From: Botryllus schlosseri | Lineage: Eukaryota | Assembly: GCA_051294905.1 (NCBI GenBank) | Contig: CM119372.1 | Coordinates: 36,024,001 to 36,088,000, forward strand | Length of the DNA stretch: 64,000 bases | Direction of reading: 5' to 3' | Shown: positions 37,777 to 60,196 of the stretch, piece after piece | Numbering within the stretch: the first letter of the stretch is position 1 | Layout of the letters: every line of letters begins with the position of its first letter | The notes under the pieces: model-generated | The model's database searches: none | What the model was told of the DNA's origin: nothing | What the model saw: only the letters and a program-made list of their open reading frames with translations | Position numbers and translations under genes: made by a program

Positions 37777-40700
37777 TCACCGTTATATTTGCGCTTGCGT
37801 GGCGTAGGCAAAATTATGGAGCGTAGGCAAAATTATGGAGGTTAATTTTCTTTGTCAGTAAACTCCTATACTGGAGTTATCGAGTAATTTTTAATTGCAA
37901 GGCGCGTAAACATAGGTCACTTCATCGCATTTTGATCCATCCAAATATTTCGACAAATGCTTGTCAAACTATAATAATTTTATTTGCTCCGGGGTGATTC
38001 TACGACGCTGCTGACAGAAGGCAAACTATTGAAGCGTCCAATTATCAACTTTAAAAAAAACTTGCCCAACTTTTAAACGGGGAAATCGCCCATTTAAAAC
38101 AAAACTGCTTCTTTCATGTGTTTTTTTTTCAGCAGCTCAGAGGAATCGCGGTATAGTTTCGTTGCCCAAAAGTGTTATCCGTAGATTGGCTGTCACCAAC
38201 CACCAAGCTGAACCTTCCTTGCAGGGGTTGACAATAACTTTCCTCCGCGGGCCGAATGAGAAGTAGGAAATGCGTTGGCGGGCCGAGTGATAAAGTTTAG
38301 CTATATTCTCCGGCGGACTTCAATTTTATTTTCAAATTACATTGTAAATAAATGCTGCTCTGTGATTGTGTTGATGTTAGGTAATGAGAAAGTGACGGCT
38401 AATTGAAAAGATTCGTCATCATGATTCGAAACAATGTTAAACATGATACGTTTTTAACTCTCTTTAAACCCCTATCCACATCCTTCTAAAACAGTGGTTC
38501 TCGAACTTTTTAGGCACGTCGTCTCCATTTATGATAGTGAAAAATATCGCGCCGCCTTATCATGATATCACAAAATATTGAAAAGTGCAACACATATGCT
38601 AGCAATCCCAACGGATAGTTTGATGGCATGGTAGGTTATGGCTGTTGATGGGAGAATTCTGAAATATAAAAGTCGGACAATACACAGAGCAATAACTATA
38701 AGCTGGGGGTTTGTCGACTACTATGGTCACTTGCACCAGGTCAATTTCCCCATTTTTATTCCGTAGCTGCCGACTTGTAGCATGGCCCATTTCTGGGCTT
38801 TTATAAGACACCGCTTACACGGATGAGATGTGCAGCTTAAATAGCCTTGATGTTGAGCTAAGCTTGCAGTTTTTCTGAACTTCTCCCTTGATAGACTGTT
38901 TCGTGGTTTTGTCATAAGACCGACTTTAATTAAAATCCTTAATCTCGGTGACATGCTAGGCAAAAAGTAAAAGGACGGGTTTACTCCTAACTCCAGTATA
39001 CAAATATTTATTGCTTTGAAGTCTAAACCTCTTTTTAATTTCAGTTTTCTGCTTTCTTTCTTTTTGGCATGGCCGTTAATCCTTTATGCGTGATAGATAT
39101 GATGAGTCCTGTAGTATAATCGCCAGCAGTGATCGACTTGTTTTACAAAATGGGGATTCGGAAACGTATCACGTTACAATTTGAAACACACACACGTATA
39201 ATGCGTAATGTCGCAACGAAGAAGGTGGCAATCAAGAAGGTTTGAACTACACTATATGGTAAGAGTGGTTTCTTGTGACGTTAAATGCTACTCATTCTCA
39301 TAATGAACAGGCTTCAAAGTAAACGAATTGCCTGTCCATTTGATATAGCCTATGGTTTTAGTCATTCAGAAGGCAAGTTTTATGTTTTGAATTCCGAGCA
39401 ACGTTTCACGGGCCGCACAGAATAACTTCGCGGGCAGTATTAGGCCCGCGGGCCGCACTTTGACCAGGTCTGTTCTATTGCCTTAGTTGAGTTTTCTGGC
39501 AACATCACAAAGGACAAGGAGCAACTGCAATTTACAATTGGAGTTTTTGCTGGCCAACGTTAAAAAGTACACTCGCAACCTGAAGCTCACTTGGCTTTAT
39601 CAATTGATATTGGTCATCATGACACCCCTGTCACTGATCAGTGGGGCAATTATTTTGGACATGTCAATAAAAGTCAATATTCGGTCAAAATGGTAGCGTT
39701 AGGTCAAAAAATGTCAAAATTGAAAACAAAGTAAAAAAAATTTGCAACCTGTATTTCGTTTGTATCGTAGATTGTGCACTGTCGGAGAGCTTATCATTTG
39801 ACATTTTACAGCTTTTAGCCTACTCTATAGGCCTATCGTTGTAGACGGCCCATTGTCTTCTCACTGTGAATCACAAACATTCAAATAACACAAATAGGTC
39901 GACATGGTGGGTGGTATGCTCAACGTACCGCAATATCCTAACCGAATCAAGACTGCGTGGGTATTGCAGGTTCTTATATCGAGAAGCGCCTTATGAAAAA
40001 TTGTGATGTAGACACCATTGTCAGAATGAAGTAACACGGTGTGTCAACAGCAGTCTACGAGCGCACAACTTCAGTGTTGTCCGCCAACAACTGCTACTAT
40101 TGAACGTTCTTTCTCCACTCTTGGCAAGCTAATTAGTAAGAACAGACGCTTTGATGCGTGATGTAACTACTGGAATTCTTCATAGGGCCAGATTTCGTTA
40201 ATATGAAGTTTTTTCAGGCCGAACTAATTAGCCTATTTCGTAAGGACAGACAGTTATAACCATAAATGATGCTAAGTAGAACAATTCTAATATTATGTGG
40301 GAAAATACCTAATTTGCATTGATTTGATCTAAATTATATTTTTTAAGGTCAAAGAATTTCAACATATTGATTTTTTTAGGTCAAAATCTTCCGTTTTTAG
40401 GTCAAAGAATGCGTTACTGATGAGCTTTATTCTTGCGAGGGAATCCTGGCCTAAATCCAAAAGTCGATTTTTAAAGACCACCCCAATATATATTTATAAG
40501 GTATTCGACAATATTAAACTGCCACCGATCTTTTGTTAGATTTGAGAACTTGAAATTCGCTCTGAAACTACTTCAAAAACCTTAAACATCTCATCAAACT
40601 TCACTATCACATCACTTTCAAGAGTTACCATGCTGTAGAAACTCAGCTATTACGTCACACTTCATGTTTATGATAGTGAAACAAATGGCTAGTTGATAAC

Positions 40701-40869
40701 AGTGGGCAACAATTTTGAACAACAAATTTATTGATTTCGATTTGGCACTTGATTAAGGCTAGTTTCGGCGTGCTGATTCCAGAAATGCCACTGGTTTTCT
40801 TCTATCACGTCAGTAGTATAGTAGATCGGTCGCGAACTAACGTTTTTTTGCATGGGCTCTTATGGGCGG

Positions 40870-41218
40870 GGTGGTGACTCGTATTGAAAACCCGGGGTGG
40901 TGACTCGTACTTTCAGACCCCCCTTGTGGTGGTGACTCGTAATGGGTTCTTATGGATGCGGCCGTGATTCGTACTTTCGGGTATAGGCTGCGGCGGTGAC
41001 TCGTATTGAAAACTCGGGGTCGTGACTCGTACTTTCGGGTATAGGCTGCGGCGGTGACTCGTATTGAAAACTCGGGGTCGTGACTCGTACTTTCGGGTAT
41101 AGGCTGTGGCGGTGACTCGTATTGGAAACTCGGGGTCGTGATTCGTACTTTTGGGTATAGGCTGTGGCGGTGACTCGTATTGAAAACTCGGGGTCGTGAA
41201 TCGTACTTTCGGGTATAG
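40870..41218. repeat. Left subterminal minisatellite, 58-bp unit
   Basis: GTATAGGCTG.GGCGGTGACTCGTATTGAAAACTCGGGGTCGTGACTCGTACTTTCGG starts at 40981, 41039, 41097 and ~41155, with partial copies upstream. Confidence 0.92.
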
Positions 41219-44200
41219 TCAACTCTCGCGCTGTGTTGAAGAAGTATCAGGAATAGTAAATAGTCACGTGATTGATTCTTAGTTAATGTGTATATTACAA
41301 ATTATTAAATATGACCGATTCGAGTTAATCTCAACGTTTGCGGTGAATGCGACTTCGATATATCGTTATTCTTATGGGCGCCGCGATGATTCGTACTTTC
41401 GTTGATAGAATGCTAGCGGCATGTCGTACTTTCACCAAAAAGGGTGTGACATAGTTTGCTAAATCTAGGAATCAGTCGCTTGGTAATTAGTTTACCACGG
41501 AACCGGTGTAGACGGCGATTCTAATACCAACAATAGCCGCGTTCACATATTAACACTCCAAATAGGTGTGAAATAGTTTGCAAACCCTGCGCTCGCTGAC
41601 AAGATAATGTCTCAGACATACGCGACTTGATGTTACAGGCATATCGATCGCTCACGCGGTGAAATTTTCGTAAGCAGTTTGACACAGAGCTTGATTTCGC
41701 TCGTACGATTTAATAAGTAACGAATAACAGACCGCCAGTGTCGGTAACTTGAATAGCGACAAATTGTCACTTATTTCCGCTCTAACCCTAATCCTTTGTG
41801 AAGTGAACGCTTATTCAAAAGGGTGTGATATCATTTTAAAATCCTACGACACTCACAGGGTAATGCTTCAGACAAAGCGATCCCTCATGCCCGCTCACAA
41901 GGTAATATTTCCGTAATTAGTTTGTCACAGAGTCGTCGCAGACGGTGATTCGTAAACCAACAATTTGACACTTTCTGGTATGGTCGCTATATGTTTTTGA
42001 CACTTTGTCCGTGTTTGACTTTATTGTATGATAAGAATCATGCGAATATTCAAGCAATGTATCAATTGAATGAAATGAAACTCACTACACAGCTCAAGTT
42101 GATTCGTATTTGAATGTGTTGATCCGGTACAATTCTAATTAATTTGAGAAATCTTTTTAACGTGATCTTCTGATTCGACCGTAACCTGAATATTACTGAC
42201 GCCGACTTTCAGTCACATTGAATTATTCACACATTCCACGCCGCTGTTTTAACAGTTATAGAATCAATACCAACTATCTCTAACCCGATAATATTCAATC
42301 ATTTCGGTAATTTACCAACTTTAAATCCATTCGCGAATGTACTAAAGGTAAATCCAAATAATCCAAAATGAAATATTTGGACTTTGACATAGTCTGAATT
42401 GAAATAGATTGACAAACATGACTACCAACTTTCCCGCAGGTCCATTTCGATATTATATGCACATTGATTTGAAACAAGTAATGAAACATTGCAACTCTAT
42501 TCGCGATCCCGCTTTCCGTTTGTCAAAGAGATATTTTAACATCTTACCATACTCAAAAGAATTCTTCACAACATTAACAATTGTTAAAAATCTAGTTTTC
42601 ACTTACTTGATTATATCACTACAACTCACAAACTTGAATTAATTCATCCTGGCTGTATTCGTATGATCGGTCTTTTTTATTCGATTGTAAAGGTCGTTAC
42701 TATTCTGAAGACAAAGTATTTACTAATCGGTACATATACGATTTGACTTGGACATATTATATTTTGAGTATACGAGATTTGAATGTCCGAACAATAACTG
42801 AGAATTAATTTATCACAATTAAATCCGTATATTACAGCGTAAAAGATATTGGGGTGTCAGCAACTCTGTACGGTCGTAGTTACAACCACATTAACTAATC
42901 TACCCAGGCAACTCGTCACGATCATTCCTGAAATCAACACAAACACGACCACTGACTTGAGTTAACCACGAAACAGCATCAAGTTTTAAATCCGCTTGCA
43001 GCTGACGGATTATTCGAATGCATCGATGGAGAATATTATTGAACTCGTCGGTATTGTTACTTCAACAAATTACACCGACTGCGAAAGTTAATATCGAATG
43101 GTAAGACTTGATCACATATTTGTTGATCACAGACATGACAAAAAAAACATTACCGAGATATTATAAACTAGTCATATTACTCTACACATCTATCAATATC
43201 AAAATGCGAGTCATCCAATTTTTCTACTAAAGTAACATTGCACTTTCGGATTCGGTATAGTCATACAAATTGTATTAAATCCAACATCAAAACAAAAGGA
43301 TTTTTTTTTTAGTTTATTGAAATCAAATCATTCGTCTTCGACTTGTGCTTTTCTAGATTGCACGCAACAATTCGTTACGAATGAGCTGTAACCAAAGTTA
43401 AGAATTCTTTGTGTCCACAGATATAGAAGATGAATATAGCTAACACAATCACGAATCGACGTTTCAGAGTATTTCGCGGATGTAATAAACTTGTTAGTGT
43501 CGCCTATCTAAAAGTATGCATGCGTTCGATTTCCATACCGACTGTTGCGATGTTTAGGATTCGCTTACAATGACCAAGAGTGAGGATTTAACATCAATGT
43601 CGTTACTGGAGGTATTCACAACAGAGAATCGAAACATTACACAGTGTGAAAATATATCTTTGATATCAAAGCACTATCCCAAGTACACGATTAATACTCA
43701 ACTCCGTTCACACTTTCTATAGAACGTGCTAAATGTAAAATATCACGAGGTTGCACTCTAAGACTTTGATCATTACAAAAGTAAATTGAATATGTTTGCT
43801 CGACGCATTCAATTCAACTAGAAATGTCTAGGGCACAACAATCGTAATATTAAGGAAGTACTTGCTACACTGTAATTCACTTAACGTGTTTTGCATTGTT
43901 GTTCATTTGTAGTATTGATTGTTTTTGAACCCCCAAATAATAATTCCCGACATGAAACCAAACCGCTGAAAGTCGTTACCAACACAAAGAAACACTTTGT
44001 ACGATGTTTGCCAAATGTATCCTATATGGTTAGGTGTACTAGAATTATTTGTGTAACACATACACCGACAATGTAATCGAAAATTTTTCCGTTGTCACTC
44101 GCTAAAGTAAATGTCATCACAATACTCTGTCACTAAAGATCTTACTTGTATCTGATTGAATCACCGATAATTAACTCGCTAAATCAAACCATAAGGAAAT

Positions 44201-45945
44201 TTCACTCACTCATCAGATATGAAACAGCATCGCTTAATCGGTGTAGATCGTTTTTCTAAATGCAAATCATACCTGACCAACAGAAAACAATTTTCACTCA
44301 CCTTGTAATGAAACCAAGTGGTGGACCTTCGTTCAATATTTTGTTTGTGTCAAATACTTTGCAATAAACACAGTGGAGTGGTCGAGCTTTACATCAGCAG
44401 ACTGTAATCTGTAAATCAAGCTTACATCCGACTTGTAACTGTATCGTTTACCTAACCGAGTTGTATGCACAGTTTGATATTTTTTGTTATTTGGTAATTG
44501 CTGAATATACTACTTCGAAATACTCCCTTGAACGTAATTTCCATCATCGTAATAATCGAAGTACATTTGTGTCGAATTCGTAACAGCCGACTATGACATG
44601 ATAAATTTTTGACAAGTTATGCTTGGAAGATTGGTTGTATATCACGAAAAATAATTACCGCTCATACTGATACTGTTATCCATTGTTCGGTATTTTCAAA
44701 CGAGTAAAATTTATTACTTGAGTTACTCCGCTTAATGCAAATGTAAACACAACCGTCTTTCAACATCGCAAAGACATCGATACAAAGTATACAATCAAAC
44801 GCAACAAGTTTTACTTTTGTAGGTTGTGTATGGTTATCCTGCATAACTCATTTCTTACCAAAGCCATATGAAATATATTCATGTTACACGAAAATATTCA
44901 CTCATGCTACAAACCTGTACAATGATTGGCGGTGCTTTCAAACTGTTTCGATACCTCAAGAACTTTATTGTCTGAATGGTTGTTCATGTATCGTAATAAT
45001 CAAGTAGTTCAACACAGAACTAGTATTAACAGAAACACCAGAGTTGTTTACACAAAAGTTTGTATGTGTACAGTATACGAATACCATGTGTAAGTCCAGC
45101 ACAATTGTGGTATCCATACGAGTTTAGTTAACACAATTTACGACACCGAGGTCGCGTCATCTTTCGTAAGACAACAAACCAAGGCTTCAGGATATGTCCA
45201 TGTCATAGCAATGAATCGGCTACTCCAACAACAGAGTGCATATGTTTTCTAGTTACGGTGCTTACATCTTACACACAAATCAATCTACTTTGCTAACGAA
45301 AAGTGGTGAGTCATCATATGGTTATCCTCACTAGTAAAACATACTATCATACAAAATGGTCGTTATAGTTTGCACACCAACGGTACATCGTACAAGTAAC
45401 AAGTCTCGAGAATCCAGTTATTCAAAAAACGTGAAAGTATTTCTACACCAAGTCGTTATGTTGACGAAAGCGTATATTGTAATACCATGATCGATTTGCA
45501 TTCGTTGGTCACAAACTGTCACTACTCTAAATAATTCTTTTTCACTCAAACACAAACGCATACTTGTCACCATTCGTTTTCATCAAGTACGAGTTCAAGA
45601 AACTTACTACGACATGAATTTTTATTTTTATGTTGTGTAAATAGGTAATAATTAATTCAAGTAACACTATATCAACATCATCGAGTTGTGCTAATAGATT
45701 TACATGCGGTCTTGTGGTTTTCATCGGGACATACAGCACGAACTAACTGTAGACTCCTCTCTGTTGTACAGCTACTCGGTAATCGAAATGCATTAACATG
45801 TAAACAACGATCTTGTTTCGTCACACCAAAAATATGTTCACTGTCGCGATACTCCGCACAAGACGTGCATAGCCTTTGCACACTCGTAATAGTATACCAA
45901 CGTCAAGCGATAACGTTTAACAAGACCAACGACACTGAACCCACG

Positions 45946-46460
45946 ACGTTTACCTATGTAAAATTACCACTTTCACTTGCCAGTCCATCGTTTACCTGAA
46001 TAAACATATTATTTTCCTTTGGAGATCTGATGTTTACCCAGAGTAAGAAACCTTTTTCACTTGGAAATCTATTTTTTCCTTGGCTAACAAACCTTTTTTC
46101 ACTTGTAAATATATTTTTTCCTTGGCTAACAAACCTTTTTTCACTTGGAAATCTATTTTTTCTCTGGTTAACAAACCTTTTTCCCCGGGTAACAAACCTT
46201 TTTCCCTGAGCAACAAGCCATTTTCACTTGGTGGTCCGTCGTTTGCCTGAGTAAAAATATCATTTTCCTTTGGGGATCTGGCGTTTACCCAGTGTAACAA
46301 TACATTTTCGCTTGGAAAAATACTTTTACCTAGAGTAACTAATTATTTTCTCCTGGGTAACAATCCCTTTTCGTCTGGAAACTATCATTTAACTGAGTAC
46401 CAATACCGTTTTCACTTGGAAATACATTTTTCCCTGGGTAACAATACCATTTTCGTTTTG
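45946..46460. repeat. Internal degenerate tandem array (~41-bp unit), left arm
   Basis: Repeated TAACAAACCTTTTTTCACTTGGAAAT; inverted counterpart at 48840-49367. Confidence 0.8.
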
Positions 46461-48839
46461 AAAACTGACAACCACACCGGTCAATTTGATATTTTTGTAT
46501 ATTGTTACAACGAACAGTGACGGAAATATACACAGACTACCGGTTTCAGAGTACACCCCATCGGTCGTATCACGTCAATATCATCGGTTAACCACATACA
46601 ATATACTCTTGTACACCGAAATGCACGCTTTGGAAAATTGGACAATAGGCTGCGATAGTTATGTGATGTCCGGGTTCGTGCTTTAGATTTTCCAGAGTCA
46701 AAATGTCTGAATAAAACACCTCCTCGACGACGGTTGGTATGTGGATAACGGTGTTCGGAAAACGGTTGGATTTATGTCACCCATCGCGATAACAATTCCA
46801 GGTCGAGTTTTCCTCCCGCATGTTTACTATATTGTGTCTTTATTGGTCAATGTATGTCTCGACATTCAGTTTGAAATCGGAAATGATAAAGTATGTAACC
46901 GGATCCGGATATCAACTCTGAATCGATAAACCAATGAACAATATTCAAAGTAAACATGTTACACCCTGTGTTTCCACGAAAAAATACCATCCAGACATAC
47001 GTCGCGCTTGTTTGCCCACACCAGTATACGCGTAAATGGAGGTGTGTGACATTGCATGCAATGTGTTGGTATACAAACATCGATCCACAGACATTATCAT
47101 AGCCGGTAGTTTTGATGTAGATCGAATGTCACCCGATAACAATACCAATAAGCCACATTGCAATGACTCTGAGTCCGCGCTATGACATCGATATTTCGAC
47201 ACCGTTCACTGATTTATTCGATGGTGTTATCGTGTTGTAACATTACAAGATAGTCATGACCCTATCTGCAGACGGACCACCCAGACCAATTGGATACATC
47301 GGTCAATATCCATCGACACCGAAGTTTTCTGCTGAGACTACAGTGTTTGATCTAGGTGAACTATCGAAGTACGGTGCTCGAAATGATTGCGATCAGTCTT
47401 TCAGTCACGATGCATGGATGTCGCTACTCCCACATAACGACTCCAGATAAATATCGTGAACAGTGATTCTGCAAATCTCGGACTGATACTGTGATCCAAT
47501 AAGGTGTGTTTCTGTGAAGACTGCAATCGGACACCACAATAGAACACTACCTCGTGATTTCACACGCAATCATAAAACACACTTTCGTAAGGGTCTAGCT
47601 CGTCCGGTGACATTTCGAAACGGTCGTCACCACAAGAGATCGGGGTTGGTCTCGTCATATCGGAGCATTTTGAAACGACATCGTCACAAGTCTATTGACG
47701 TCGATTCAGTTGGTCATGTCAATCCGTTTCACAATCCACCGTTTTTCAACTCCCCGCACCATAGTGTTACGACACAGACAAGAAGCGTCGGTGGAAATAA
47801 TAAAACACGGAAGGGACACTTTGGTGTTATTTGACATGGGCTTTACACCTGACGAACCTTACATTCGAGCGATGCATTGGAATGCCGCTTGTATTATTGA
47901 CGTAGAAGGAACAGAAATGTATCGATTTATTGGTTTCGTACATATCCAACGAAAATCTGGGTATATGATTCTGCATGGCTCGCATATTCGACTGTGAACG
48001 CTCTATTGGTATATTCTGTATAGTTCACTTTCGCCGTCGTGCGAATAACCCATGTTACGGTTCCATGTTTGTGCGTCTGTATGTCATGCTTCAGATTGAC
48101 TCAGAGTCATTGCAATGTGGTTTATTGGTATTGTTATCGGGTGTGATGACATTCGATCTGCATCAAAATTACCGGCTATGATAATGTCTGTGGATCGAAG
48201 GATTACTCCCCGATGTTTGTATACCAACACATTGCATGCAATGTCACACACCTCCATTTACGCGTATACTGGTGTAGGCAAAGAAGCGCGACGTATGTCT
48301 GGATGGTATTTTTTCGTGGAAACACAGGGTGTGACATGTTTACTTTGAATATTGTTCATTGGTTTATCGATTCAGAGTTGATATCCGGATCCGGTTACAT
48401 ACTTTATCATTTCCGATTTCAAACTGAATGTCGAGACATACATTGACCAATAAAGACACAATATAGCAAACATGCCGGAGGAAAACTCGACCAGGAATTG
48501 TTATCGCGATGGGTGACATAAATCCAACCGTTTTCCGAACACCGTTATCCACATACCAACCGTCGTCGAGGAGGTGTTTTATTCAGACATTTTGACTCTG
48601 GAAAATCCAAAGCACGAACCCGGACATCACAGAACTATCGAGGCCTATTGTCCAAGTTTCCAAAACATGCATTTCAGTGTACAAGAGCATATTTTATGTG
48701 GTTAACCGATGATATTGATGTGATACGACCGATGGGGTATACTCTGAAACCGGTTGTCTGTGTATATTTCCGTCACTGTTTGTTGTAACAATATACAAAA
48801 ATATCAAATTGACCGGTGTGGTTGTCAGTTTTCAAAACG

Positions 48840-49367
48840 AAAATGGTATTGTTACCCAGGGAAAAAATGTATTTCCAAGTGAAAACGGTATTGGTACTCA
48901 GTTAAATGATAGTTTCCAGACGAAAAGGGATTGTTACCCAGGAGAAAATGATTAGTTACTCTAGGTAAAAGTATTTTTCCAAGTGAAAATGTATTGTTAC
49001 ACTGGGTAAACGCCGGATCTCCAAAGGAAAATGATATTTTTACTCGGCTAAACGACGGACCACCAAGTGAGAATGGTTTGTTGCTCAGGGAAAAAAGGTT
49101 TGTTGCTCAGAGAAAAAATATATTTCCAAGTGAAAAAGGTTTGTTACCCAGAGAAAAAATATATTTCCAAGTGAAAAAGGTTTGTTACCAAGAGAAAAAA
49201 TATATTTCCAAGTGAAAAAGGTTTGTTACCCAGAGAAAAAATATATTTCCAAGTGAAAAGGGGTTTGTTACACTGGGTAAACGATAAATCTCCAAAGGAT
49301 AATGGTATTTTAGTTAGGTAACGGTGGACCTCCAAGTGAAAATGATAATTTTACATAGGTAAACGTC
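48840..49367. repeat. Internal tandem array (~41-bp unit), right arm
   Basis: Repeated AGAGAAAAAATATATTTCCAAGTGAAAAAGGTTTGTTACCC. Confidence 0.85.
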
Positions 49368-50434
49368 AGTTGTCCAAACCAGTATGATATCTTGACTTGG
49401 GTAGGTATCTTGTGTTCAACGCTGGTAGTGTGATTGGTCTTGTTAAACGTAGTTGCCGAGTTGTACAATATACTTTTCGTGCGTATACAGTTACGAAGGG
49501 GCGGAAAATGAAATTGCTATTATGATCGTCAGAAGATTGTTGTATGTTGATTTGACAGTAACCCTATCATTCGCATATGACAAACACAATCATGGCCATT
49601 AACTAACTTGCTCGGTCTCGATCAATGTAAAAGAGATGATTAGTTTTTTGAAACCGTAGCGAAGACCACATGTAAATCTATGCGATAGACTTCTATCTCC
49701 TTGCATTCAGTCGTGTCGTATCCATTTTAATACGGTCCCCACATGTATGACATGCACACACTAACGACGTAAACAGAAGTCGATGATTAATAAAAATATT
49801 TCTTGACTACATCGGAATGTCTATGTTGTAGAAAGTGAATACTTTTATGGTGTTGTGTGTTTAATGAAAGCGATTGGTTACAAGTATGTTTTGGCGGAAT
49901 AGAATTTATTTTTCTGTATGTGACAGTTTGTGGGGAAATGAAAATAGATTCATGGTTTTAATTGGATTGCGCTGTTTAATGTACGCTTCAACATGGAGAC
50001 TTGACGCGGAACAACAACTCGATTCACAAAACAATCATTCACTGGTGTGCAGAGGGTTAGGGACATTTTAATACAGCTCCATCTACTGGTTGCTGTGAGG
50101 ATAATCATGTGATGACTCAGCACTTTTCGTTAGCAAAGTTGATTGATCTGTGTGTAAGATTCGAGAGTCGTTACTAGAAAACGTATGTACTCTGTTGTTG
50201 GAGTAGCTGGTTTATTGCTATGACATTGACAGAATCTCGAGAAGTGAGTATGCCCTACATTCACGAAAGTTTACGTGGCTCCGTTGTAATAAATTGGTGT
50301 TAACTAATCTCGGCTGGATACCGCAATTGTGCTGGACTTACACGTGGTATTCGCATACTGCGCACATATAAACTTTTGTGTAAACAACTCTGATGTTACT
50401 GTTGGTACTAGTGCTGTGTTGAACTATTTGGTTC

Positions 50435-50649
50435 TGTGAAACCCTGTTTTTTTTTTATATTTTCCGGTTGGAAAATTGTGTGATTTTCCGCGCGCGTTTC
50501 TTTGTTTCGTTGATCGGTTGTTGGATTTTGGTGGCGGCTGAGTACTGACCAGTTGTTGTTTTAAATAAATATTAATAGGATTATTCGACTGGATTCTTCC
50601 GCTGTGTTAAGTGCAAATCAGCAGTGTGTAATCGAAAAGGGACGCTACA
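50435..50649 (+). repeat. 5' LTR
   Basis: TGTGAAACCC...GACGCTACA; direct repeat of 55916-56130. Confidence 0.97.
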
Positions 50650-50653
50650 ACTT

Positions 50654-50670
50654 TGGCGAGCACGCCAGGA
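50654..50670 (+). promoter_or_regulatory. Primer-binding site, probably tRNA-Arg
   Basis: TGGCGAGCACGCCAGGA, 4 nt after the LTR; resembles the complement of tRNA-Arg(ACG) 3' ends. Confidence 0.75.
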
Positions 50671-50725
50671 CATACTGTACTGATTTGTGCTACTGGAATA
50701 ACGGCGACGCTACGGTACTGACAAA

Positions 50726-52030
50726 ATGACGAAAACCAGGAGTAGAAAGACCAAGCGCGAATCTATTGAGAAGTACGAGGCCACCGATCAGGAACTTGAA
50801 GGACAGTATTCTGCTTTCGTCAGTAGAGCAGTGGGGGAATTGAAGGAATATCTTGACAAAAAGATTGCACTACAAGAAGAAAGGCTGTTGAAAACGGAGG
50901 CTCGACTGAGTAATAGAATTGATGGTCTTGAACAAGGACTAGCCGAGATTATGACTTTCATTCGGACGGTTACCGGCTCTACACTGCCAGCTCAACATGT
51001 CGCTGCTACTACTGAACATGAGTTGGTTGAGGAAGAACAGGAAGTTGTGACCTTGTCAGAGCCGGTTGTTGAAAAATTCCTGGAACCAGTCACTCCGTCA
51101 GCAGGAAAGCCAACCGTAAGTGATGATATTTCTACTGCGAGTAATTTAGCCCCAGTCACGGAGCAACATTTGACCAATAATTCTGGTCGCTGTAGACCTA
51201 AACGACCTCAACCGTTTGATGGAACTAGCTCTTGGAATAGTTATATATGCCATTTTGAAGCGGTGGCCGAGTATAACAGATGGGATGACTATGAAAAGGG
51301 CTACGAGTTAGCAACTTGTATGCTTGGGCAAGCTCTCGACTTACTCTCTGAACTAGCACCCTCAGATCGGAACAACTATACGGTAATTGTGGCGCATATG
51401 CAAAATTTCTTCAATCCCATTGGGGGAGAAATGGCCTACCGAGCGATGTTTGACAATAGGGTACGAAAAAGTACCGAAACTCCCATGGAGTATGGAGCCG
51501 CTTTAAAGTTACTAGCAACAAAAGCATTTCCTTCACTGGATTTGCCTGGGCGAGGCGTGATGTTGAAGACGCAGTTTCTAAGGGGAATTGCTGACTGCGA
51601 AATGCGCAAGCTTGTGGCCATGCAACAGCCGAAGTCGTTAGAAGATGCAATAGCACTCGCCACTCAATACTATTACCTCGACACTATGGACAATAATGTT
51701 AAGAGAGAGGGTAAGCCGCGTGCTGGCATCGCTCCCGTGACTCGAAGCGAACATCATTCCTCGTCGGATGAGTCAACTCCCAAGGTAGATGAGACTCTGA
51801 GTGAACTCAAGGGTTTGCTGCTGAAACTTGTTCAACAGAATACGCCCATCAAACCTTGTCCGATATGTAAACAGCAAGGCCATTGGGCCCGGCAATGCCC
51901 AAATATCCCACCAGGACCTCGCCGTTGCTTCAATTGCCATGAAGAAGGGCATTTTAGGAGGGACTGTCCCAGACATGGTGTTACGACTCCAAAAGACCCT
52001 GCATCAAAAAACTCAACGCAGCAGGCATGA
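50726..52030 (+). CDS. gag: Gag (434 aa)
   Basis: N-terminal coiled-coil-like region, capsid-like PQPFDGTSSW, and two CCHC knuckles (CPICKQQGHWARQC, CFNCHEEGHFRRDC). Confidence 0.95.
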   Translation: MTKTRSRKTKRESIEKYEATDQELEGQYSAFVSRAVGELKEYLDKKIALQEERLLKTEARLSNRIDGLEQGLAEIMTFIRTVTGSTLPAQHVAATTEHELVEEEQEVVTLSEPVVEKFLEPVTPSAGKPTVSDDISTASNLAPVTEQHLTNNSGRCRPKRPQPFDGTSSWNSYICHFEAVAEYNRWDDYEKGYELATCMLGQALDLLSELAPSDRNNYTVIVAHMQNFFNPIGGEMAYRAMFDNRVRKSTETPMEYGAALKLLATKAFPSLDLPGRGVMLKTQFLRGIADCEMRKLVAMQQPKSLEDAIALATQYYYLDTMDNNVKREGKPRAGIAPVTRSEHHSSSDESTPKVDETLSELKGLLLKLVQQNTPIKPCPICKQQGHWARQCPNIPPGPRRCFNCHEEGHFRRDCPRHGVTTPKDPASKNSTQQA

Positions 52031-52047
52031 GGTCCTCATCGCCTGCT
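52006..52047 (+). promoter_or_regulatory. -1 programmed ribosomal frameshift signal
   Basis: A AAA AAC in the gag frame (52006-52012), a 7-nt spacer, then hairpin AGCAGGC-ATGAG-gtc-CTCAT-c-GCCTGCT (52020-52047). pol is in the -1 frame and open from the heptamer. Confidence 0.85.
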
Positions 52048-55000
52048 ACTACAATTATGGATGACGACGTTAAAATGGACCTGTTCTCGAGACCATGGAT
52101 TTCAGCTATCCAATGGGAAGATAGCTGGTATGCTGAAATTAATGTAAATAATCAATTGATCTGGTTTATGGTGGATAGTGGCGCTGGTACGACATTACTG
52201 GATAAATCACTTCTAGAATCGATTGGTAGTGTCCTGAATCCCTGTATGCGTTCGTTCGATGCGGTGGGAGGATACCCACTGGACATCTCTGGTACCGTCG
52301 AGGTGGAGCTCAGCGTTGGCTTGGTGGCGGCTCGACAGACGGTGGTTGTAGCGGATTTGGGTGTGCCAATCGGACTTCTTGGGATGGATTTTTTGAAGAG
52401 TCACGAGTGTGTGATGCATCTCTCATCCGGAATACTAGACGTTGCAGGAGAACAAGTGAAACTCACCAGGCATGACAGGGTACCGTTTTGCCAGGTCACC
52501 GTTCATGAGGATGTTGAAATTCCACCGCTATCCAAGAAAATAATACCCGGTAAACTGCAACTACGTTTGTCTACTTGCAGCACGGTGGCTACAGTCGTGG
52601 AACCCTTGCCAACTAAGGATTCTTCGGAAAAGAGAATTGAAGTAATCCCTGGGATTGTCGATCCGGACCAACCACAAGTCCCTGTATTGGCTCTGAACAC
52701 TTCAACGGAAAAGGTCACTTTGAAGTCAGGATCACTGTTGGGTAAGGCACACCAGTACACCATGTCTGATTTTTCGGAAGCGACGAACGAGGACTCAAGG
52801 GATCAGCGACCGTGGATGTACAAAGAGGACTTGCCTGCACATCTGCGCAGCCTGGTAGCAGATGCCGATGATCTTACTACTGAGCAGGAGAAATGTTTGA
52901 TCTCATTATTATACGAGTATCGAGACATTTTTGTTGGGCCTGATGGGGCCTTGGGGCGAACGTCTGCTGCCAAGCACCGCATCATTACAACCTCTGATCA
53001 ACCGATACGTGTTCCTCCTAGGAGATTAGGTTGGACCAGGCGACAAGTTGCGGAAAAAGCTGTTGATCAGATGTTGGAACAGGGTGTCATAGAACCTAGC
53101 GACAGTCCATACTCCTCACCTATTGTGCTGATACCAAAGAAATCAGGTGACACTCGTTTTTGCATTGACTTTCGGCGTCTTAATGACATCACATACAAAG
53201 ACGCATACCCTTTGCCGCGTATTGAGGACATCATCGATTCCTTAGGCGGGGCAAAATGGTTCTCAACCTTGGATTTAGCCAGTGGCTACTGGCAAGTCGA
53301 AGTAGACCCCACGGACCGTGAAAAGACCGCGTTTAGCCTACCTGGGAAGGGTCACTTCCAATTTGTGGTCATGCCATTCGGATTGGCTAATGCACCTGCG
53401 ACATTTGAGAGAATGATGGAATCAGTGCTTGGAGATATCCTCTGGAAAAATTGTTACACCTATTTGGATGATGTAATGACTCATGGCACCGACTTCGATT
53501 CCGCTCTTGAGAATTTGAGACAGGTCTTGAATCGATTGAAAGAAGCTGGTCTTCGATTGAAACCATCAAAGTGCACCTTGTTTCGACGCAGCACTCGTTA
53601 CCTTGGTTTTGTGATTTCTGAAGACGGTGTGAAATGTGATACTGACAATGTCTCGGCAATAACCAATTGGGAAACTCCAAGTACAGTGACGGAGGTACGT
53701 AGTTTCCTTGGGACGGCCAATTACTATCGACGTTTCCTGCCGGACTTTGCAACTGTGGCATCCCCCTTATCACGCTTGACACGGAAGAATACTGTTTTTC
53801 ATTGGACTCCTGAGTGTGCGCAATCTTTCGAGCGATTAAAGCAAATGTTAACGACGGATCCAGTCTTGGCGTTCCCTACCTTAGACGGCGAGTTCATCCT
53901 AGATACGGATGCTAGTGGAACTGGGACCGGTGGTGTCCTTTCTCAGATTCAAGATGGAATTGAACGTGTCGTTGCATATACTAGTCGAACTTTGACAAAA
54001 GCAGAAAGATCGTACTGTGTCACCGAGCTTGAATTGTTGGCGGTGGTACATGCTGTTCGAAGCTTCCGCCATTACCTTTATGGGAGGCCATTTCTTATTC
54101 GTACCGACCATGGCGCGCTTACCTGGCTACTCAACTTCCGCGAACCAGAAGGCAAAGTTGCTAGATGGATCTCAATGCTGGGAACATATGACTTTCGCAT
54201 AGAACATCGTCCAGGAAGAAAACACGGCAATGCCGATGGACTCTCCCGACGGAAGTGCAAACGAGCTACCTGCCCCGATTGTGCAAACGCCCCGATATCT
54301 AGCATCCGCAAAGCCAGGGAGAATAAGCTGCCAGCCTGCAATTGGCCAATTGCGTACTCCGAAAATGAAATCAAGGATCTTCAACATCAGGATGCAACTC
54401 TCAAGTCAGTTATTGCTTGGCTGCAGGCTTCCACCACAAAACCGGATCCTGACCAGATAATGCACGAGTCGAGTGAAGTGAAACAATACCTCGGACAATG
54501 GAACCTGTTGAACCTGTCAGATGGGGTTTTGTATCGACATTGGGTTCCAGATTACACCACGGAGGAAAGTATCTGGCAACTATGTACCCCGGTTAACGTC
54601 CGTAAAAAGATATTTGAAGAACTGCATTGCCGTCGCACAGCGGGCCATCTCGGTACAAATAAGACCTTTAAGGCTATACGAAGCCGTTTTTACTGGCCTG
54701 GATTTAAAAGGCAAGTCACGGACTGGTGTCGCTTCTGCAAGACCTGCACATCTACCAAAATGCTTCATGGTAAGCCACAGGGCGATTTGAAACAGTTACT
54801 CTGTGGTGCCCCAATGGAACGCGTTGCTCTGGATTATATTGGACCGTTGCCAAAGACAGAGAATGGTAATGAGCATCTACTTGTTGTCTCCGATTACTTT
54901 ACCAAGTGGGTTGAATGCTTTCCAACGTCAGACCAGTGTGCAGATACTACAGCAGACATATTGGTTACACAATTTTTCTCTCGTTTTGGTGTACCCAGGC

Positions 55001-55800
55001 TGATTCACACTGATCAAGGCCGGAATTTCGAGTCCGATCTGTTCTCACAAATGTGTTCTCTATATGGCATTGTAAAAACACGTACAACACCTTATCATGC
55101 AAGATCGGATGGTCAGGTGGAAAGATTCAACAGGACAGTGCAGCAAATGCTTCGTGCCTATGTCAATGAGAATCGTTCGGACTGGGATGACCACGTCCCA
55201 TACTTGTGTATGGCGTACAGGTCGTCTGTGCATGACAGCACAGGGTATACACCAAACCGGCTCATGTTGGGACGTGAAATTGATCTACCGGTAGATGTCA
55301 TGTATGGGAAGCCTCCCAAGGACAAGACTCATGGCTGTTACACAGATTTTGTGCAATGGTTCGCTATCGCCACAGAGGACGCATTTCAACATGCACGGTC
55401 CAACCTTCATAATGCGGCCTTGCGGCAGAAACGAAATTATGATGTCAAAGTAAGACCTGTAAGATTCGACGTGGGCGACTTGGTTTGGTATTATTACCCG
55501 CCGAAAAATCTGAAACTGGGTTCGCCTTGGATTGGGCCATATCAAGTTTTGGACTGTATCCCGAATCATCTTTACAGAATAAGACAAAAAGTTGGTGGGA
55601 AGAGTCGGGTGGTACATGTCGACAACTTGCGACATTACTTCAGTGAGGGCGAGGAACCCCTCTCTGAACTTGATGGAGAATCTGGTCCCGGCGCCGAAAT
55701 TGAGAATGCAGACTCTGAGATGTCCGAAGCTTCCAACGACAATGCAGGAGTGGAATCTCGTCAGCGCCGTCGCCCCGCATACTTGGACGATTATGTTTAA
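52027..55800 (+). CDS. pol: Pol polyprotein (protease, RT, RNase H, integrase)
   Basis: VDSGA protease, YLDD RT, DTDAS RNase H, HHCC plus DDE integrase and a GPY motif, in Gypsy domain order. Confidence 0.97.
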   Translation: MRSSSPATTIMDDDVKMDLFSRPWISAIQWEDSWYAEINVNNQLIWFMVDSGAGTTLLDKSLLESIGSVLNPCMRSFDAVGGYPLDISGTVEVELSVGLVAARQTVVVADLGVPIGLLGMDFLKSHECVMHLSSGILDVAGEQVKLTRHDRVPFCQVTVHEDVEIPPLSKKIIPGKLQLRLSTCSTVATVVEPLPTKDSSEKRIEVIPGIVDPDQPQVPVLALNTSTEKVTLKSGSLLGKAHQYTMSDFSEATNEDSRDQRPWMYKEDLPAHLRSLVADADDLTTEQEKCLISLLYEYRDIFVGPDGALGRTSAAKHRIITTSDQPIRVPPRRLGWTRRQVAEKAVDQMLEQGVIEPSDSPYSSPIVLIPKKSGDTRFCIDFRRLNDITYKDAYPLPRIEDIIDSLGGAKWFSTLDLASGYWQVEVDPTDREKTAFSLPGKGHFQFVVMPFGLANAPATFERMMESVLGDILWKNCYTYLDDVMTHGTDFDSALENLRQVLNRLKEAGLRLKPSKCTLFRRSTRYLGFVISEDGVKCDTDNVSAITNWETPSTVTEVRSFLGTANYYRRFLPDFATVASPLSRLTRKNTVFHWTPECAQSFERLKQMLTTDPVLAFPTLDGEFILDTDASGTGTGGVLSQIQDGIERVVAYTSRTLTKAERSYCVTELELLAVVHAVRSFRHYLYGRPFLIRTDHGALTWLLNFREPEGKVARWISMLGTYDFRIEHRPGRKHGNADGLSRRKCKRATCPDCANAPISSIRKARENKLPACNWPIAYSENEIKDLQHQDATLKSVIAWLQASTTKPDPDQIMHESSEVKQYLGQWNLLNLSDGVLYRHWVPDYTTEESIWQLCTPVNVRKKIFEELHCRRTAGHLGTNKTFKAIRSRFYWPGFKRQVTDWCRFCKTCTSTKMLHGKPQGDLKQLLCGAPMERVALDYIGPLPKTENGNEHLLVVSDYFTKWVECFPTSDQCADTTADILVTQFFSRFGVPRLIHTDQGRNFESDLFSQMCSLYGIVKTRTTPYHARSDGQVERFNRTVQQMLRAYVNENRSDWDDHVPYLCMAYRSSVHDSTGYTPNRLMLGREIDLPVDVMYGKPPKDKTHGCYTDFVQWFAIATEDAFQHARSNLHNAALRQKRNYDVKVRPVRFDVGDLVWYYYPPKNLKLGSPWIGPYQVLDCIPNHLYRIRQKVGGKSRVVHVDNLRHYFSEGEEPLSELDGESGPGAEIENADSEMSEASNDNAGVESRQRRRPAYLDDYV

Positions 55801-55903
55801 TACCCTATGCTTTTGGCTCTAACTTGTGTTTTCTTTCTTGCAAATTGTGTTCGTTTGAACCCTATTGATTTCGATTCCCAGTTAGGGAATCTCCATCAAT
55901 AAT

Positions 55904-55915
55904 AGGAGGGGGTAG
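55904..55915 (+). promoter_or_regulatory. Polypurine tract
   Basis: AGGAGGGGGTAG immediately before the 3' LTR. Confidence 0.85.
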
Positions 55916-56130
55916 TGTGAAACCCTGTTTTTTTTTTATATTTTCCGGTTGGAAAATTGTGTGATTTTCCGCGCGCGTTTCTTTGTTTCGTTGATCGGTT
56001 GTTGGATTTTGGTGGCGGCTGAGTACTGACCAGTTGTTGTTTTAAATAAATATTAATAGGATTATTCGACTGGATTCTTCCGCTGTGTTAAGTGCAAATC
56101 AGCAGTGTGTAATCGAAAAGGGACGCTACA
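55916..56130 (+). repeat. 3' LTR
   Basis: Identical by eye to 50435-50649; followed by gttc. Confidence 0.97.
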
Positions 56131-59100
56131 GTTCTTAAGACACATGAACAACCATTCAGACAATAAAGGTCTTGAGGTGACGAAACAGTTTGTAGAGTCA
56201 AACCAACCATTCTTTAGTTTCGTAATGTGAGAATATCGAGTAAAGTTGATTACTTTTTGTAAATATCTTTCGTACTTTTGTAAGAGTTGTGGGGGGGTCT
56301 CATGAAAAAGTAACTAGTTGACAAAAACAAAATATTGAATGAAGGTTCGTCTGTTGTTTTCATAAGTCAAGAGAGTGGAAATTGTTGTTGTTGTTTTTGT
56401 TACACTGAATCGAAATAGTGTGAAAGCGTCACCAATCATTGCGTATGTTCGTAGCACGAGCGAATATTTTCGTGTGCCGTGAATATCTTTCATATACACT
56501 TAGTATGAAATGAGATGTGTGGAATAATAATTAGTGTCCAACAAAAGTAAAACTTGTTGTATTTGCTTGTGTACTTTTTATCATTGTTTGTTGTTGAAAG
56601 ACGGGTGAGTTTACATTTAAATATAGTAAGCAGGACAACTCAAGTAATAAATTTTGCTCGGTTGAAAATCGACTCGTTTGAAAATACCGGTCAATGGACT
56701 AACAGTATCAATATGAGTGGTATATTATTTTTCGCGAGATGAACCAATCTTCTAAGCATAACTTTTCAAAAATTCGTCATGTCATAGAGAAGTAGTCGGT
56801 TGTTATGAACTCGACACAAATGTACTTCGATTATCACGATGATGGAAATTACGACCAACACAGTATTTCGTAAGTGAATGTGTATCGTTTGGTATGTTCA
56901 GCAGTCACTAAATGACAAAAATAGCAAACTGATGCAACCCGGTAGTTAAACGATACAGTTACAAGTTGGATGTAATCTTGATTTACAGATGACAGCTTGA
57001 TGAGTATTGTGATGACATTTACTTTAGCGAATGACAACGGAAAAATTTTCGATTGCATTGTCGGCGTATGTGTTACACAAATAATTCTAGTACACCTAAC
57101 TATAGGATGCATTTGACAAACATCGTACAAATTGTTTCGTTGTGATGGTAACGACTTTCAGCGGTTTGGTTTCATGTCGGGAATTATTATTTGGGGGGTT
57201 CAAAAACAATCAATACTACAAATGAACAACAATGCAAAACACGTTAAGTGGATTACAGCGTAGCAAGTACTTCCTTGATATTACGATTGTTGTGTACCAG
57301 ACATTTCTAACTGAATTGAATGCATCTAGCAAACATATTCCAATTTACTTTTGTAATGATCAAAGTATGTGAAATGGTGCGAATGGATTAGGTATTAATC
57401 AAGCGGCTGTATATGTCAATTCACCTAGTGTGATATCTTGACACCGGATAATGTGCGAAAGTGTTTCAATTCTCACTGCTGATTACGATGATAAAGTATT
57501 GTACCGGTTATTGTTTAACAAAGGAAATTGTTGTTTCATCTTTAGTCTTGGTTAGTGGAGACAATTACATTTGTAAAATATTTTCTGATATCCGCGATAC
57601 GCAGGGTGATATGTACCAAGGTGGAATAATTTTCCATTCAAGAACATTTCAGACACGCATAGTTTTACAACTCAATATGTTAATAACAACGGTACTGAAA
57701 AGTTTGTTGCTGTCATAATAACCTTTACCACAACGCCGGGTCTAATTAACGCGAATAATTTAATAATCAAGTCATGATAGACCATTACAAAATCTCATAT
57801 GTTCAATCGATGTGACAATCCTTATGTTTACATCACGATAATTTTCGATATAACACCTGCGTTCGATTGTAAGAAACTACGATGGTCATACTTTCAAATG
57901 TCGTATACTCAAATATATTATGTTAATCTCAAGTCGCCGACACCGAGAAGTAATTATTTTTGTCTTACAAAATATACCGCAAAGTAATTTCTTGGTCTTG
58001 CGGCATAGTAACGACTTTTACAGTTGAACAAAAAAGACGAGTTGGTGGCATATGCCTAAAACCGAACTTGATATGTTTGTGGGTTGTAGTGATTACTTGC
58101 GTAGTCTTGTCTACTTTTCATATGGACACTTTTTGCTTTGGTTCGGTGAGTTACAAACGGATTGACTTGACAAGGTTTTTGTATTTTATTCTTTTGTTGA
58201 TGGCAAGATGTTACAATGTTGAGATGTCGTAGTGATTATATTTCTGAAACTCTGTTTGACAAACGTAAAGACAGGTCGCGAATAGAGTTGTAATGTTTCA
58301 TTACTTGTTTCGAATCAATGTGCGTATAATCTCTAAATATGACTGGGTTGAAAGCTGTTAGTCATGTTTGTCAATCTATTTCAATTCAGACTATGTCAAA
58401 GTCCAATTATTTCATTTTGGATTATCTGGATTTACCTTTAGTACATCTCGCGAGTGGATTCCGACGTCGTGCTATAACACTCTTAATAATACGGGTTCAA
58501 GGGTTTTCAATCAACAATGCCTGAATTTTTTGGTAATGCTAGAGTTGGCAAATGATTAGTTGCGTGTTTTTGTTAAGAGTTTAAATTCATGTTGATAGAG
58601 ATAATAACTGTATAATGCACATACTTGTGATTCTTGTAGAGTTATAGTTGGTATTGATTCTATAGGTGTGAAAACAGCGGCGCGAATGTGTGAATAATTC
58701 AATGTGCCTGAAAGTCGGCGTCAGTAATATTCAGGTTACGGTCGAATCGAAAGATTACGTTAAAAAGATTTCTCAAATTAATTAGAATTGTACTGAATTA
58801 ACACATTCAGATACGAATCAACTTGAGTTGTGTAGTAAGTTTCATTTCAAGTTGACAAATTGACACACTGATTGAATATTTTCATGATTTGTATCACGCA
58901 AAGTCAACGACTGTTCCGAAGTCTCAAAACATATAGCGATCACGTGCAAGTGTCAAATTGTTGGTTTTCGAATCACGGTCTGCGCTGGTACTGTTATTCA
59001 TTACTTATTACTTGATAGGAACAACCACCGATATATTACACTGTAGCGATTGGGATGTATGTAATGACAAGACGCGAGAAATGGCTATGTCTTTGGTGTT

Positions 59101-59679
59101 ATCTTGTGAGCGATCGTGGGATTTGTAACCTATTTCACACGTTTTGAAGTGTTGGTTTGTGAACGCGGTTATTGTTGCTATTCGAATCACCGTCTACGCC
59201 GGCTCCGTGGTAAACTAATTACCAAGCGACTGATTCCTAGATTTAGCAAACTATTTCACACCCTTTTTGGTGAAAGTACGACATGCCGCCCGCATTCTAT
59301 CAACGAAAGTACGAATCATCGCCGCGTCCATAAGAATAACGATATATCATTGTCGTACTCGCCGTAATTTGGAATATACACATTAACTAAGGATCAATCA
59401 CATGACTATTTACTTGATACATATTCAACACCGGGCGAGAGATGCCTATACCCGAAAGGGCGATTCACGGTCGCACCTATAAGACACAATAGCCGCATGC
59501 CACCACCGCCATAAGAATAACGTTATATCATTGTCATACTCACCGTAAACGTTGGGATTAACTCGAATCGGTCATATTTAATAATTTGTAATATACACAT
59601 TAACTAAGAATCAATCACGTGACTATTTACTATTCCTGCTACCTATTCAACACAGCGCGAGAGTTGACTATACCCGAAA

Positions 59680-59985
59680 GGGCGATTCACGGCCGCACCC
59701 ATAAGACACAATAGCCGCATGCCAGCTCCGCCATAAGACGCAATAACCACATGCCAACTCACCCGTAAGAAATAAGCACCGCATGCCAACTCACCCATAA
59801 GACATAGCCGCATGCCAACACGAATTTCCAAGCCGCGTGCGAGCGATCCCTATACTGAAAAGAGTTACCGTGCGAGAGGGGCCATAAGACGCAATAGCCG
59901 CATGCGAGCGGGCCCATAAGCCATAAGGAGCCGCATGCCAACACGAGTTTCCCAGCCGCATGCGAGCGGGCCCATAAGAACCCCA
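59680..59985. repeat. Right subterminal degenerate array (CCATAAGAC..ATAGCCGCATGC units)
   Basis: Many irregular copies of CCATAAG and CCGCATGC. Confidence 0.8.
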
Positions 59986-60196
59986 TGCAAAAAACGTTAG
60001 TTCGCGACCGATCACATATACTACTCACGTCAAGTTTTTGCTCTACGACATATGCCCAAAATATGCAAATTTCCACGAATTCAGCCATATTACTTTTCCA
60101 TGCCAATATAAATCCACACTTTTACCATATAATAAGTTATCTAGCCAAGGGTTCAATTGAATTTTTAAGAATAAAGGTAGTGGTATCGATCTAGGC

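Follow-up and report, generated by a model that had tools for sequence, protein, structure and literature searches.

What kind of element has the ends of a Polinton and two very long inverted arms, and how its arms can come to differ from each other, are the questions raised by a locus of Botryllus schlosseri. The window analysed here is the whole 64,000-bp stretch from position 36,024,001 to 36,088,000 of contig CM119372.1 (assembly GCA_051294905.1), and the element spans positions 40812-60025 of this window. We know of no case in which the replication or movement of Polintons/Mavericks has been directly shown. The element is probably a dependent, i.e. non-autonomous and satellite-like, palindromic derivative of Polintons/Mavericks that belongs to a very abundant family of about 13-16 kb. 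The window copy itself appears to be a recombinant of two subfamilies rather than a palindrome that has aged.

Ends, layout and kinship with Polintons

The element starts with AGTAGTATAGTAGATCGGTC and finishes with the reverse complement of AGTAGTATATGTGATCGGTC, its outer tips reading AGTAGT...ACTACT. These termini and a perfect 6-bp target site duplication (TSD), both claimed in the original prediction, were confirmed, with CACGTC lying on both sides. A search with the 20-bp end motif (up to two mismatches) gave 2 matches in the window, one on each strand and both at the ends of the element, and the claim of integration as one unit is borne out by this single pair of ends together with the single perfect duplication. 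Without the nested Gypsy insert (5,700 bp) the element measures 13,514 bp and consists of two arms, which make up about 93% of it, and a 922-bp loop at 47176-48097; the size and the loop position agree with those predicted. The predicted hairpin with arms of about 6.3 kb stood as regards this layout but not as a near-perfect palindrome, since only about 3.2-3.7 kb of each ~6.3-kb arm can be aligned with the other, at about 88% identity (patches of 77-97%).

For comparison, 17 elements were fetched whole from the genome, comprising 15 members of the family and 2 gene-bearing Polintons (18 with the window element); in genome similarity searches, the best 40 candidates were scored per search. The two Polintons, d1 (C1:5923771-5942033, 18.3 kb, inverted repeats of 443 bp) and d5 (C1:19598838-19616100, 17.3 kb, inverted repeats of 688 bp), carry AGTAGT-N6-GATCGSTC ends, 6-bp duplications and related subterminal repeats. 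A 1,214-aa frame of d1 matches DNA_pol_B_2/pPolB (PF03175; 32.6 bits, cut-off 25.8), and d1 further codes for an rve integrase (60 bits) joined to a chromodomain and gives a weak match to an A32-like ATPase. The first 233 bp of the window element are 76% identical to the inverted repeat of d1, and the family copy c4b is 92% identical to the end of d5 over 682 bp; in these two Polintons, the only ones examined, matches to the palindrome arms are confined to the outer 0.2-1.3 kb. Perfect 6-bp duplications, all different, flank 15 of the 18 elements, and 11 of these 15 conform to the target NNCGNN (CG at positions 3-4), in palindromic and gene-bearing elements alike, including d1 and d5.

Barreat and Katzourakis (2021; PMC8097293) describe an (AGT)2//(ACT)2 motif together with 6-bp duplications as the signature of vertebrate Mavericks, whose inverted repeats measure 46-1,447 bp. 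The window element has the same (AGT)2...(ACT)2 ends and 6-bp duplications, and shares the subterminal repeats and the NNCGNN target with d1 and d5; unlike Polintons/Mavericks, it lacks the core genes, and its inverted repeats of about 6.3 kb compare with the 46-1,447 bp of the vertebrate elements. The Polinton connection is well founded, because the motif and the 6-bp duplications match those of d1 and d5 and the Maverick signature, and the subterminal repeats and the NNCGNN target match those of d1 and d5.

None of the 73 frames of at least 55 aa in the window element matched Pfam at E ≤ 0.01, and no pPolB, integrase, capsid, ATPase or protease was found among them. When 74 internal frames of d1 and d5 were compared with the palindromes by tblastn, no core gene was matched and only two subterminal, non-core pieces were recovered. 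The evidence supports a dependent derivative with Polinton-type ends rather than a simple internal deletion of a parent with long terminal inverted repeats (TIRs), because the gene-bearing Polintons with the same motif have short inverted repeats (443 and 688 bp); the equally long TIRs in autonomous relatives that the original prediction had named as grounds for the simpler reading were thus not encountered in the two examined.

The features of the element are as follows (c7 and e1 are other copies of the family):

40806-40811, no strand: left copy of the TSD, CACGTC, directly outside the left end
40812-40831, plus strand: left end motif AGTAGT-N6-GATCGGTC, common to gene-bearing Polintons of the same genome
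40812-47175, plus strand: left arm, of which about 40960-47175 matches the arms of c7 (C7:28373900+) at 98.56% identity over 6,229 bp
40873-41218, plus strand: subterminal tandem repeats, 58-bp unit, about 4.4 copies, a repeat type also present in the inverted repeats of d1
46012-46454, plus strand: inner left-arm tandem repeats of 41-42 bp, with a mirror copy at 48978-49271
47176-48097, plus strand: unique loop, best other loops in the genome 94% identical (best 40 of 990 candidates)
47716-47997, plus strand: loop frame P0001, 93 intact codons and a stop, conserved in family loops
48098-50434, minus strand: inner part of the right arm, from 48082 (to 50429) 99.83% identical to e1 (C5:23506001+)
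50435-56130, plus strand: nested Ty3/Gypsy-type retroelement with long terminal repeats (LTRs) that show no difference, a 4-bp duplication, and open gag and pol frames
56131-60025, minus strand: outer part of the right arm, matching e1 at 99.25% identity up to 59993
60006-60025, minus strand: right end motif AGTAGTATATGTGATCGGTC, a match to the 20-bp end motif of the family
60026-60031, no strand: right copy of the TSD, CACGTC, directly outside the right end and identical to the left copy

Tandem repeats of 32 bp at 59696-59819, near the right end, are unlike the left-end repeats. No Rfam family reached its gathering score within 40000-61000.

The palindromic family and the two arms of the window copy

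The end motif AGTAGTNNNNNNGATCGSTC has 2,286 matches in the genome (1,148 forward and 1,138 reverse), compared with 0 and 3 for the reversed control. Among the first 100 motif matches listed, 37 adjacent plus/minus pairs were counted by eye, 21 of them 12.8-15.5 kb apart, and at least 66 sequences in the 495-Mb genome match the first 389 bp of the element, most of them arranged as inverted pairs with a spacing of 9.6-15.7 kb. Thirteen of the 15 whole family members are palindromic, with arms 98.8-100% identical over 4.1-6.8 kb, and the other two are rearranged; the unique centre of palindromic copies measures 0.75-1.4 kb where it is free of later insertion, and the family loops align end to end between copies. 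A genome search with the terminal sequence, suggested in the original prediction as a check, thus turned up similar palindromic copies with different 6-bp TSDs.

Some variation at the ends was observed within the family. The approximately 25 bp that follow the 20-bp end motif (40832-40856 and 59981-60005 in the window) are highly variable even between copies with arms 96-99% identical, and are the same at both ends in most copies. The element at C1:17830932-17844021, flanked by the duplication AACAGT, has arms 99.6% alike in the 2.4 kb sampled and two end types, its outermost ~570 and ~190 bp being mutually unlike. A second pair of unlike ends, partly sampled, was rejected as a single element, being without a duplication.

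Left arms are 82-98.7% identical between copies, while within a single copy the arms reach 98.8-99.94% identity. In a joint alignment of c7 and c6a, 166 differences are mirrored in both arms and 8 and 5 are confined to one arm, among 6,261 sites; the corresponding counts are 52 mirrored against 0 and 7 for c7 and c4a, and 136 mirrored against 5 and 7 for c6a and c4a. The arms of c7 and c6a are 96.4% identical and their loops 85%, while for c6a and c9b the values are 96.4% and 98%. Arms and loops therefore have separate histories, modules having been exchanged between lineages. Since modules are exchanged and yet both arms of a copy are the same, one arm must have been copied from the other, and on these sequence counts arm-to-arm copying demonstrably happens in the family. 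Inter-arm substitutions in 8 copies comprise 21 CpG transitions, 62 other transitions and 84 transversions.

Copy c9b (C9:7518100-7535100) is inserted in the loop frame of a second member of the family. Past both of its ends the inverted repeat continues for 535 bp (99.89% identity over 7,150 bp), and its "duplication" reads CACGGA on the left and, as the reverse complement of this, TCCGTG on the right. After insertion, the right flank of c9b was overwritten with the left flank in inverted form, as far as the point at which the arms of the host element themselves provide inverted homology.

In the window copy, the left-arm stretch 42531-43763 has no partner in the right arm. Elsewhere in the genome the left-arm-only stretch 42540-43760 has at least 39 other matches at 91-99% identity, 32 of which form 16 inverted pairs, and copies of the right-arm-only stretch 57400-58640 are also mostly paired; like-armed palindromes are therefore what both parental types normally form. 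Of 74 diagnostic sites in the inner 1.2 kb of the left arm, 65 are of the c7 type. Eight sites of the right-arm type could be checked against further relatives, and six of these vary within the c7 subfamily; the bases at 47021 and 47033 are of the right-arm type against all four relatives and may represent a short conversion patch. Close to the loop the two arms are 97% identical over 656 bp, and each side is there 98.8% or 99.8% like its own relatives, so that the raised identity is ordinary conservation between subfamilies and not local homogenisation. At both ends the outermost ~45 bp belong to a single type, which differs from those of c7 and e1, and even among close relatives this stretch is variable.

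These alignments point to a recombinant with a left arm from the c7 subfamily and a right arm from the e1 subfamily. In the simplest reading, the loop came with the right arm and a single exchange took place near the border of left arm and loop. The recombination would have preceded integration, or whole-arm conversion would have followed it, because the duplications match and a single unequal crossover in place would give unlike flanks; either way the chimera would never have been made symmetric. Copy e1 itself (C5:23506001-23530000) is without the family loop and one copy of the inner ~750 bp, an arm segment now serving as its loop, and it carries a 1.5-kb insertion in one arm.

The frame in the loop

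The original prediction described the element as gene-less and without a long open reading frame. The latter holds, the longest stop-to-stop frame outside the Gypsy insert being 154 aa and located in the terminal repeats; the former had to be revised, as the loop contains a conserved and intact frame of 93 codons at 47716-47997. Of the 17 fetched elements, 12 contain a homologous frame in their centre, 4 of these with in-frame stops; it is absent from d1, d5 and the copies without a centre. The frame falls into two deep clades separated by a nonsynonymous divergence (dN) of 0.26-0.29 and a synonymous divergence (dS) of 0.85-0.92, with no indel in 91 codons. We interpret it as a small protein gene under purifying selection; that the protein is kept by selection is suggested by the dN/dS of 0.30-0.32 and the lack of any indel over those 91 codons.

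A word-indexed protein search with the loop frame returned one 93-aa entry that is 90% identical, and a profile search of 1.84 billion representatives returned one 91-aa relative. No Pfam family was matched, the ESM Atlas gave only matches below 0.9, and a profile of the frame showed no similarity to any of 374 frames of d1 and d5 (best E 0.21). The repeats of a WD40 protein were considered as a relative; the match was marginal (E 1.5e-4) and was taken as probably due to chance. As for function, our guess is that the loop protein may serve the propagation of the element itself. It would be a first case of a dependent Polinton derivative that retains a gene.

Competing explanations, known systems and the wider locus

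In the mechanism that we propose, the element would share the cis signals of the gene-bearing Polintons of the genome, namely the (AGT)2 motif, then GATCGSTC, then the subterminal tandem repeats. The integrase of these Polintons, and probably also their protein-primed polymerase, would move the element in trans, with preference for NNCGNN as a target and duplication of 6 bp on integration.

The unlike arms of the window copy could in principle have arisen in other ways. That an old palindrome with arms identical at insertion drifted in place to about 88% identity, the view implicit in the original prediction, is hardly credible: the arms do match in patches of 77-97% with the best ones near the centre, but sequences nearly identical to each arm exist elsewhere (98.56% for the left, 99.3-99.8% for the right), whole stretches found in one arm and in its relatives are missing from the other arm, and the identity near the loop is that of normal subfamily conservation, with sides 98.8% and 99.8% like their own relatives. 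A mis-join by the assembler of two family members from two loci, through their conserved centre, is improbable, even with over a thousand family copies and inner arms 97% alike between subfamilies. No spanning read or contig was found, the contigs being short, nor was a sister chimera among the best 40 candidates scored per search; however, CACGTC is identical on both sides, the window holds one plus and one minus end, and correct assembly is easier with arms that differ than with identical arms. A more serious contender, though still on the unlikely side, is that a like-armed element was inserted here and one whole arm was later gene-converted from an unlinked copy of the other subfamily, an account that differs from our own only in the timing of the recombination. 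The outermost ~45 bp, of one type at both ends and unlike c7 and e1, suggest that the foreign tract may be internal, templated copying on the scale of an arm took place after insertion at c9b, and short conversion patches are hinted at by two left-arm positions, 47021 and 47033, with bases of the right-arm type. Such a tract would nevertheless need to span almost exactly one arm (about 6.2 kb), and the outermost 45 bp, variable as they are among close relatives, do not fix where it ended.

With respect to the nature of the family, a fold-back transposon of another cut-and-paste superfamily, Polinton-like only at its tips, would resemble classical foldback elements in its long inverted repeats full of tandem repeats and its lack of transposition genes. 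We consider this very improbable, as the 20-bp motif, the subterminal repeats (76-92% identity over 230-680 bp), the 6-bp duplication and the NNCGNN target all occur on elements with pPolB and rve. Equally poor are the prospects of a newly formed snap-back (copy-back) defective genome, a single product of one Polinton end that then integrated, as had been originally proposed. Its near-Polinton size, Polinton ends and hairpin shape are in favour of it; however, the arm and loop layout is inherited, with loops that align end to end and 2,286 end motifs, i.e. over a thousand family ends, and inside the outer 0.2-1.3 kb the arms have no match to d1 or d5, the two Polintons examined. The arms of the window copy are also not exact complements, being about 88% identical over about half their length and drawn from two subfamilies. 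The proposed likeness to a satellite or defective-interfering genome thus survives in that the element is dependent, satellite-like and equipped with Polinton ends without the genes, and fails as to a snap-back origin of this copy. The family as a whole may still go back to an ancient copy-back event.

Several points weigh against our reading of a helper-dependent Polinton derivative with recombinant arms and a gene of its own. Trans-mobilisation and helper dependence are inferred from the shared ends, and a whole-genome search with PF03175 found nothing although the d1 polymerase passes the cut-off, which we treated as a search miss. The outside check of the recombinant is its identity to other copies of the same assembly only, and a mis-join is excluded only by the matching duplication, which two unrelated insertions would share perhaps once per few hundred given the NNCGNN preference. 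The 130-160 bp beside each end are single-copy and thus provide no paralogous flank with an empty site. No second copy of this chimera was found (the best other match to 46700-48500 is 94% identical, best 40 of 1,385 candidates), and the loop, at 94% identity at best among the best 40 of 990 candidates, has no close relative. The homologues of the loop frame outside the family amount to two short database entries (93 and 91 aa), its AlphaFold model, with a predicted local distance difference test (pLDDT) score of 39, offers no usable fold, and RNA depth over the frame is almost nil in two raw RNA runs, which overall gave no more than 6.4 per 656-bp bin, mostly from partial reads with the variants of other copies.

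The copying between arms may take place when a single-stranded replication intermediate folds back and its arms pair, as a racket model would allow, or by arm-to-arm templated repair in the chromosome. For Polintons, the standing model of a racket-shaped single-stranded intermediate copied by a protein-primed polymerase has been proposed (cited second-hand in PMC4196379). More tentatively, and with considerable doubt, we suggest that the family may be a hairpin-genome satellite of Polinton viruses: it would be replicated extrachromosomally by the protein-primed polymerase of a helper, the displaced strand would fold back and one arm would proof-read the other, the window copy would be a frozen recombinant of two lineages that replicated within one nucleus, integrated before symmetrisation, and the loop protein would be the element's own factor for exploiting its helper. 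If true, this would explain how arms stay identical despite lineage divergence and module swaps.

Comparable architectures are known from other systems, the closest being defective adenovirus genomes and Drosophila Foldback elements. Defective genomes of adenovirus have long inverted duplications of one end, and adenovirus ends are repaired via a panhandle. The element would be like them in being linear, replicated by protein priming and provided with large TIRs by the copying of one end onto the other; unlike them, it belongs to an integrated family whose layout is inherited, whereas adenoviral defective genomes arise anew in infection from viral sequence, and its arm interior is not recognisably Polinton-derived and its loop has its own gene. 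Drosophila Foldback (FB) elements have 9-bp duplications and a MuDR-related transposase and belong to another superfamily. They share with the element very long, partly tandem-repeat inverted repeats, a mostly non-coding content and mobilisation in trans (presumed for the element), and differ from it in the length of the duplication, which is 6 bp here, and in the absence of Polinton ends. Large chromosomal palindromes such as those of the human Y chromosome undergo arm-to-arm gene conversion, and there too the arms evolve in concert with differences mirrored in both; these palindromes are fixed in the chromosome, whereas the present family is mobile and its copying may occur in a replication intermediate.

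We found no published description of a family of palindromic, foldback or long-TIR non-autonomous Polintons, the available passages of PMC6431247 included. The kind of element, a Polinton derivative, is already known, and the additions made here are the unlike-armed recombinant and the count-based case for arm-to-arm copying. With over a thousand ends (2,286 motif matches), elements made up almost wholly of inverted repeat, and arms that change in step, the family could serve as a natural readout of Polinton replication. The unlike-armed copy would mark recombination between lineages and labels each arm separately, by which arm-to-arm copying, loop orientation and strand-specific transcription become measurable at one locus. 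The palindromes of the family, large and able to form hairpins, occur on all large contigs; they bear on the stability of the genome and the quality of its assembly, and are possible sources of double-stranded RNA.

The Gypsy insert in the right arm (5,696 bp) has TG..CA LTRs and the duplication GTTC at 50431-50434 and 56131-56134. It encodes gag with a zinc knuckle and pol in the order protease, reverse transcriptase, RNase H and integrase, as in Ty3/Gypsy elements. From its identical LTRs the insertion is very recent, and it would have landed in the right arm after the chimera had formed. A joint that skips it was seen in DNA contigs and can derive from other copies such as e1. Elsewhere in the window, a 776-aa open frame at 24524-26854 on the minus strand has no Pfam match. 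Dispersed repeats lie at 40212-40683 and 60184-60625, beyond the single-copy 130-160 bp on either side of the element, with matches of 81-97% identity genome-wide.

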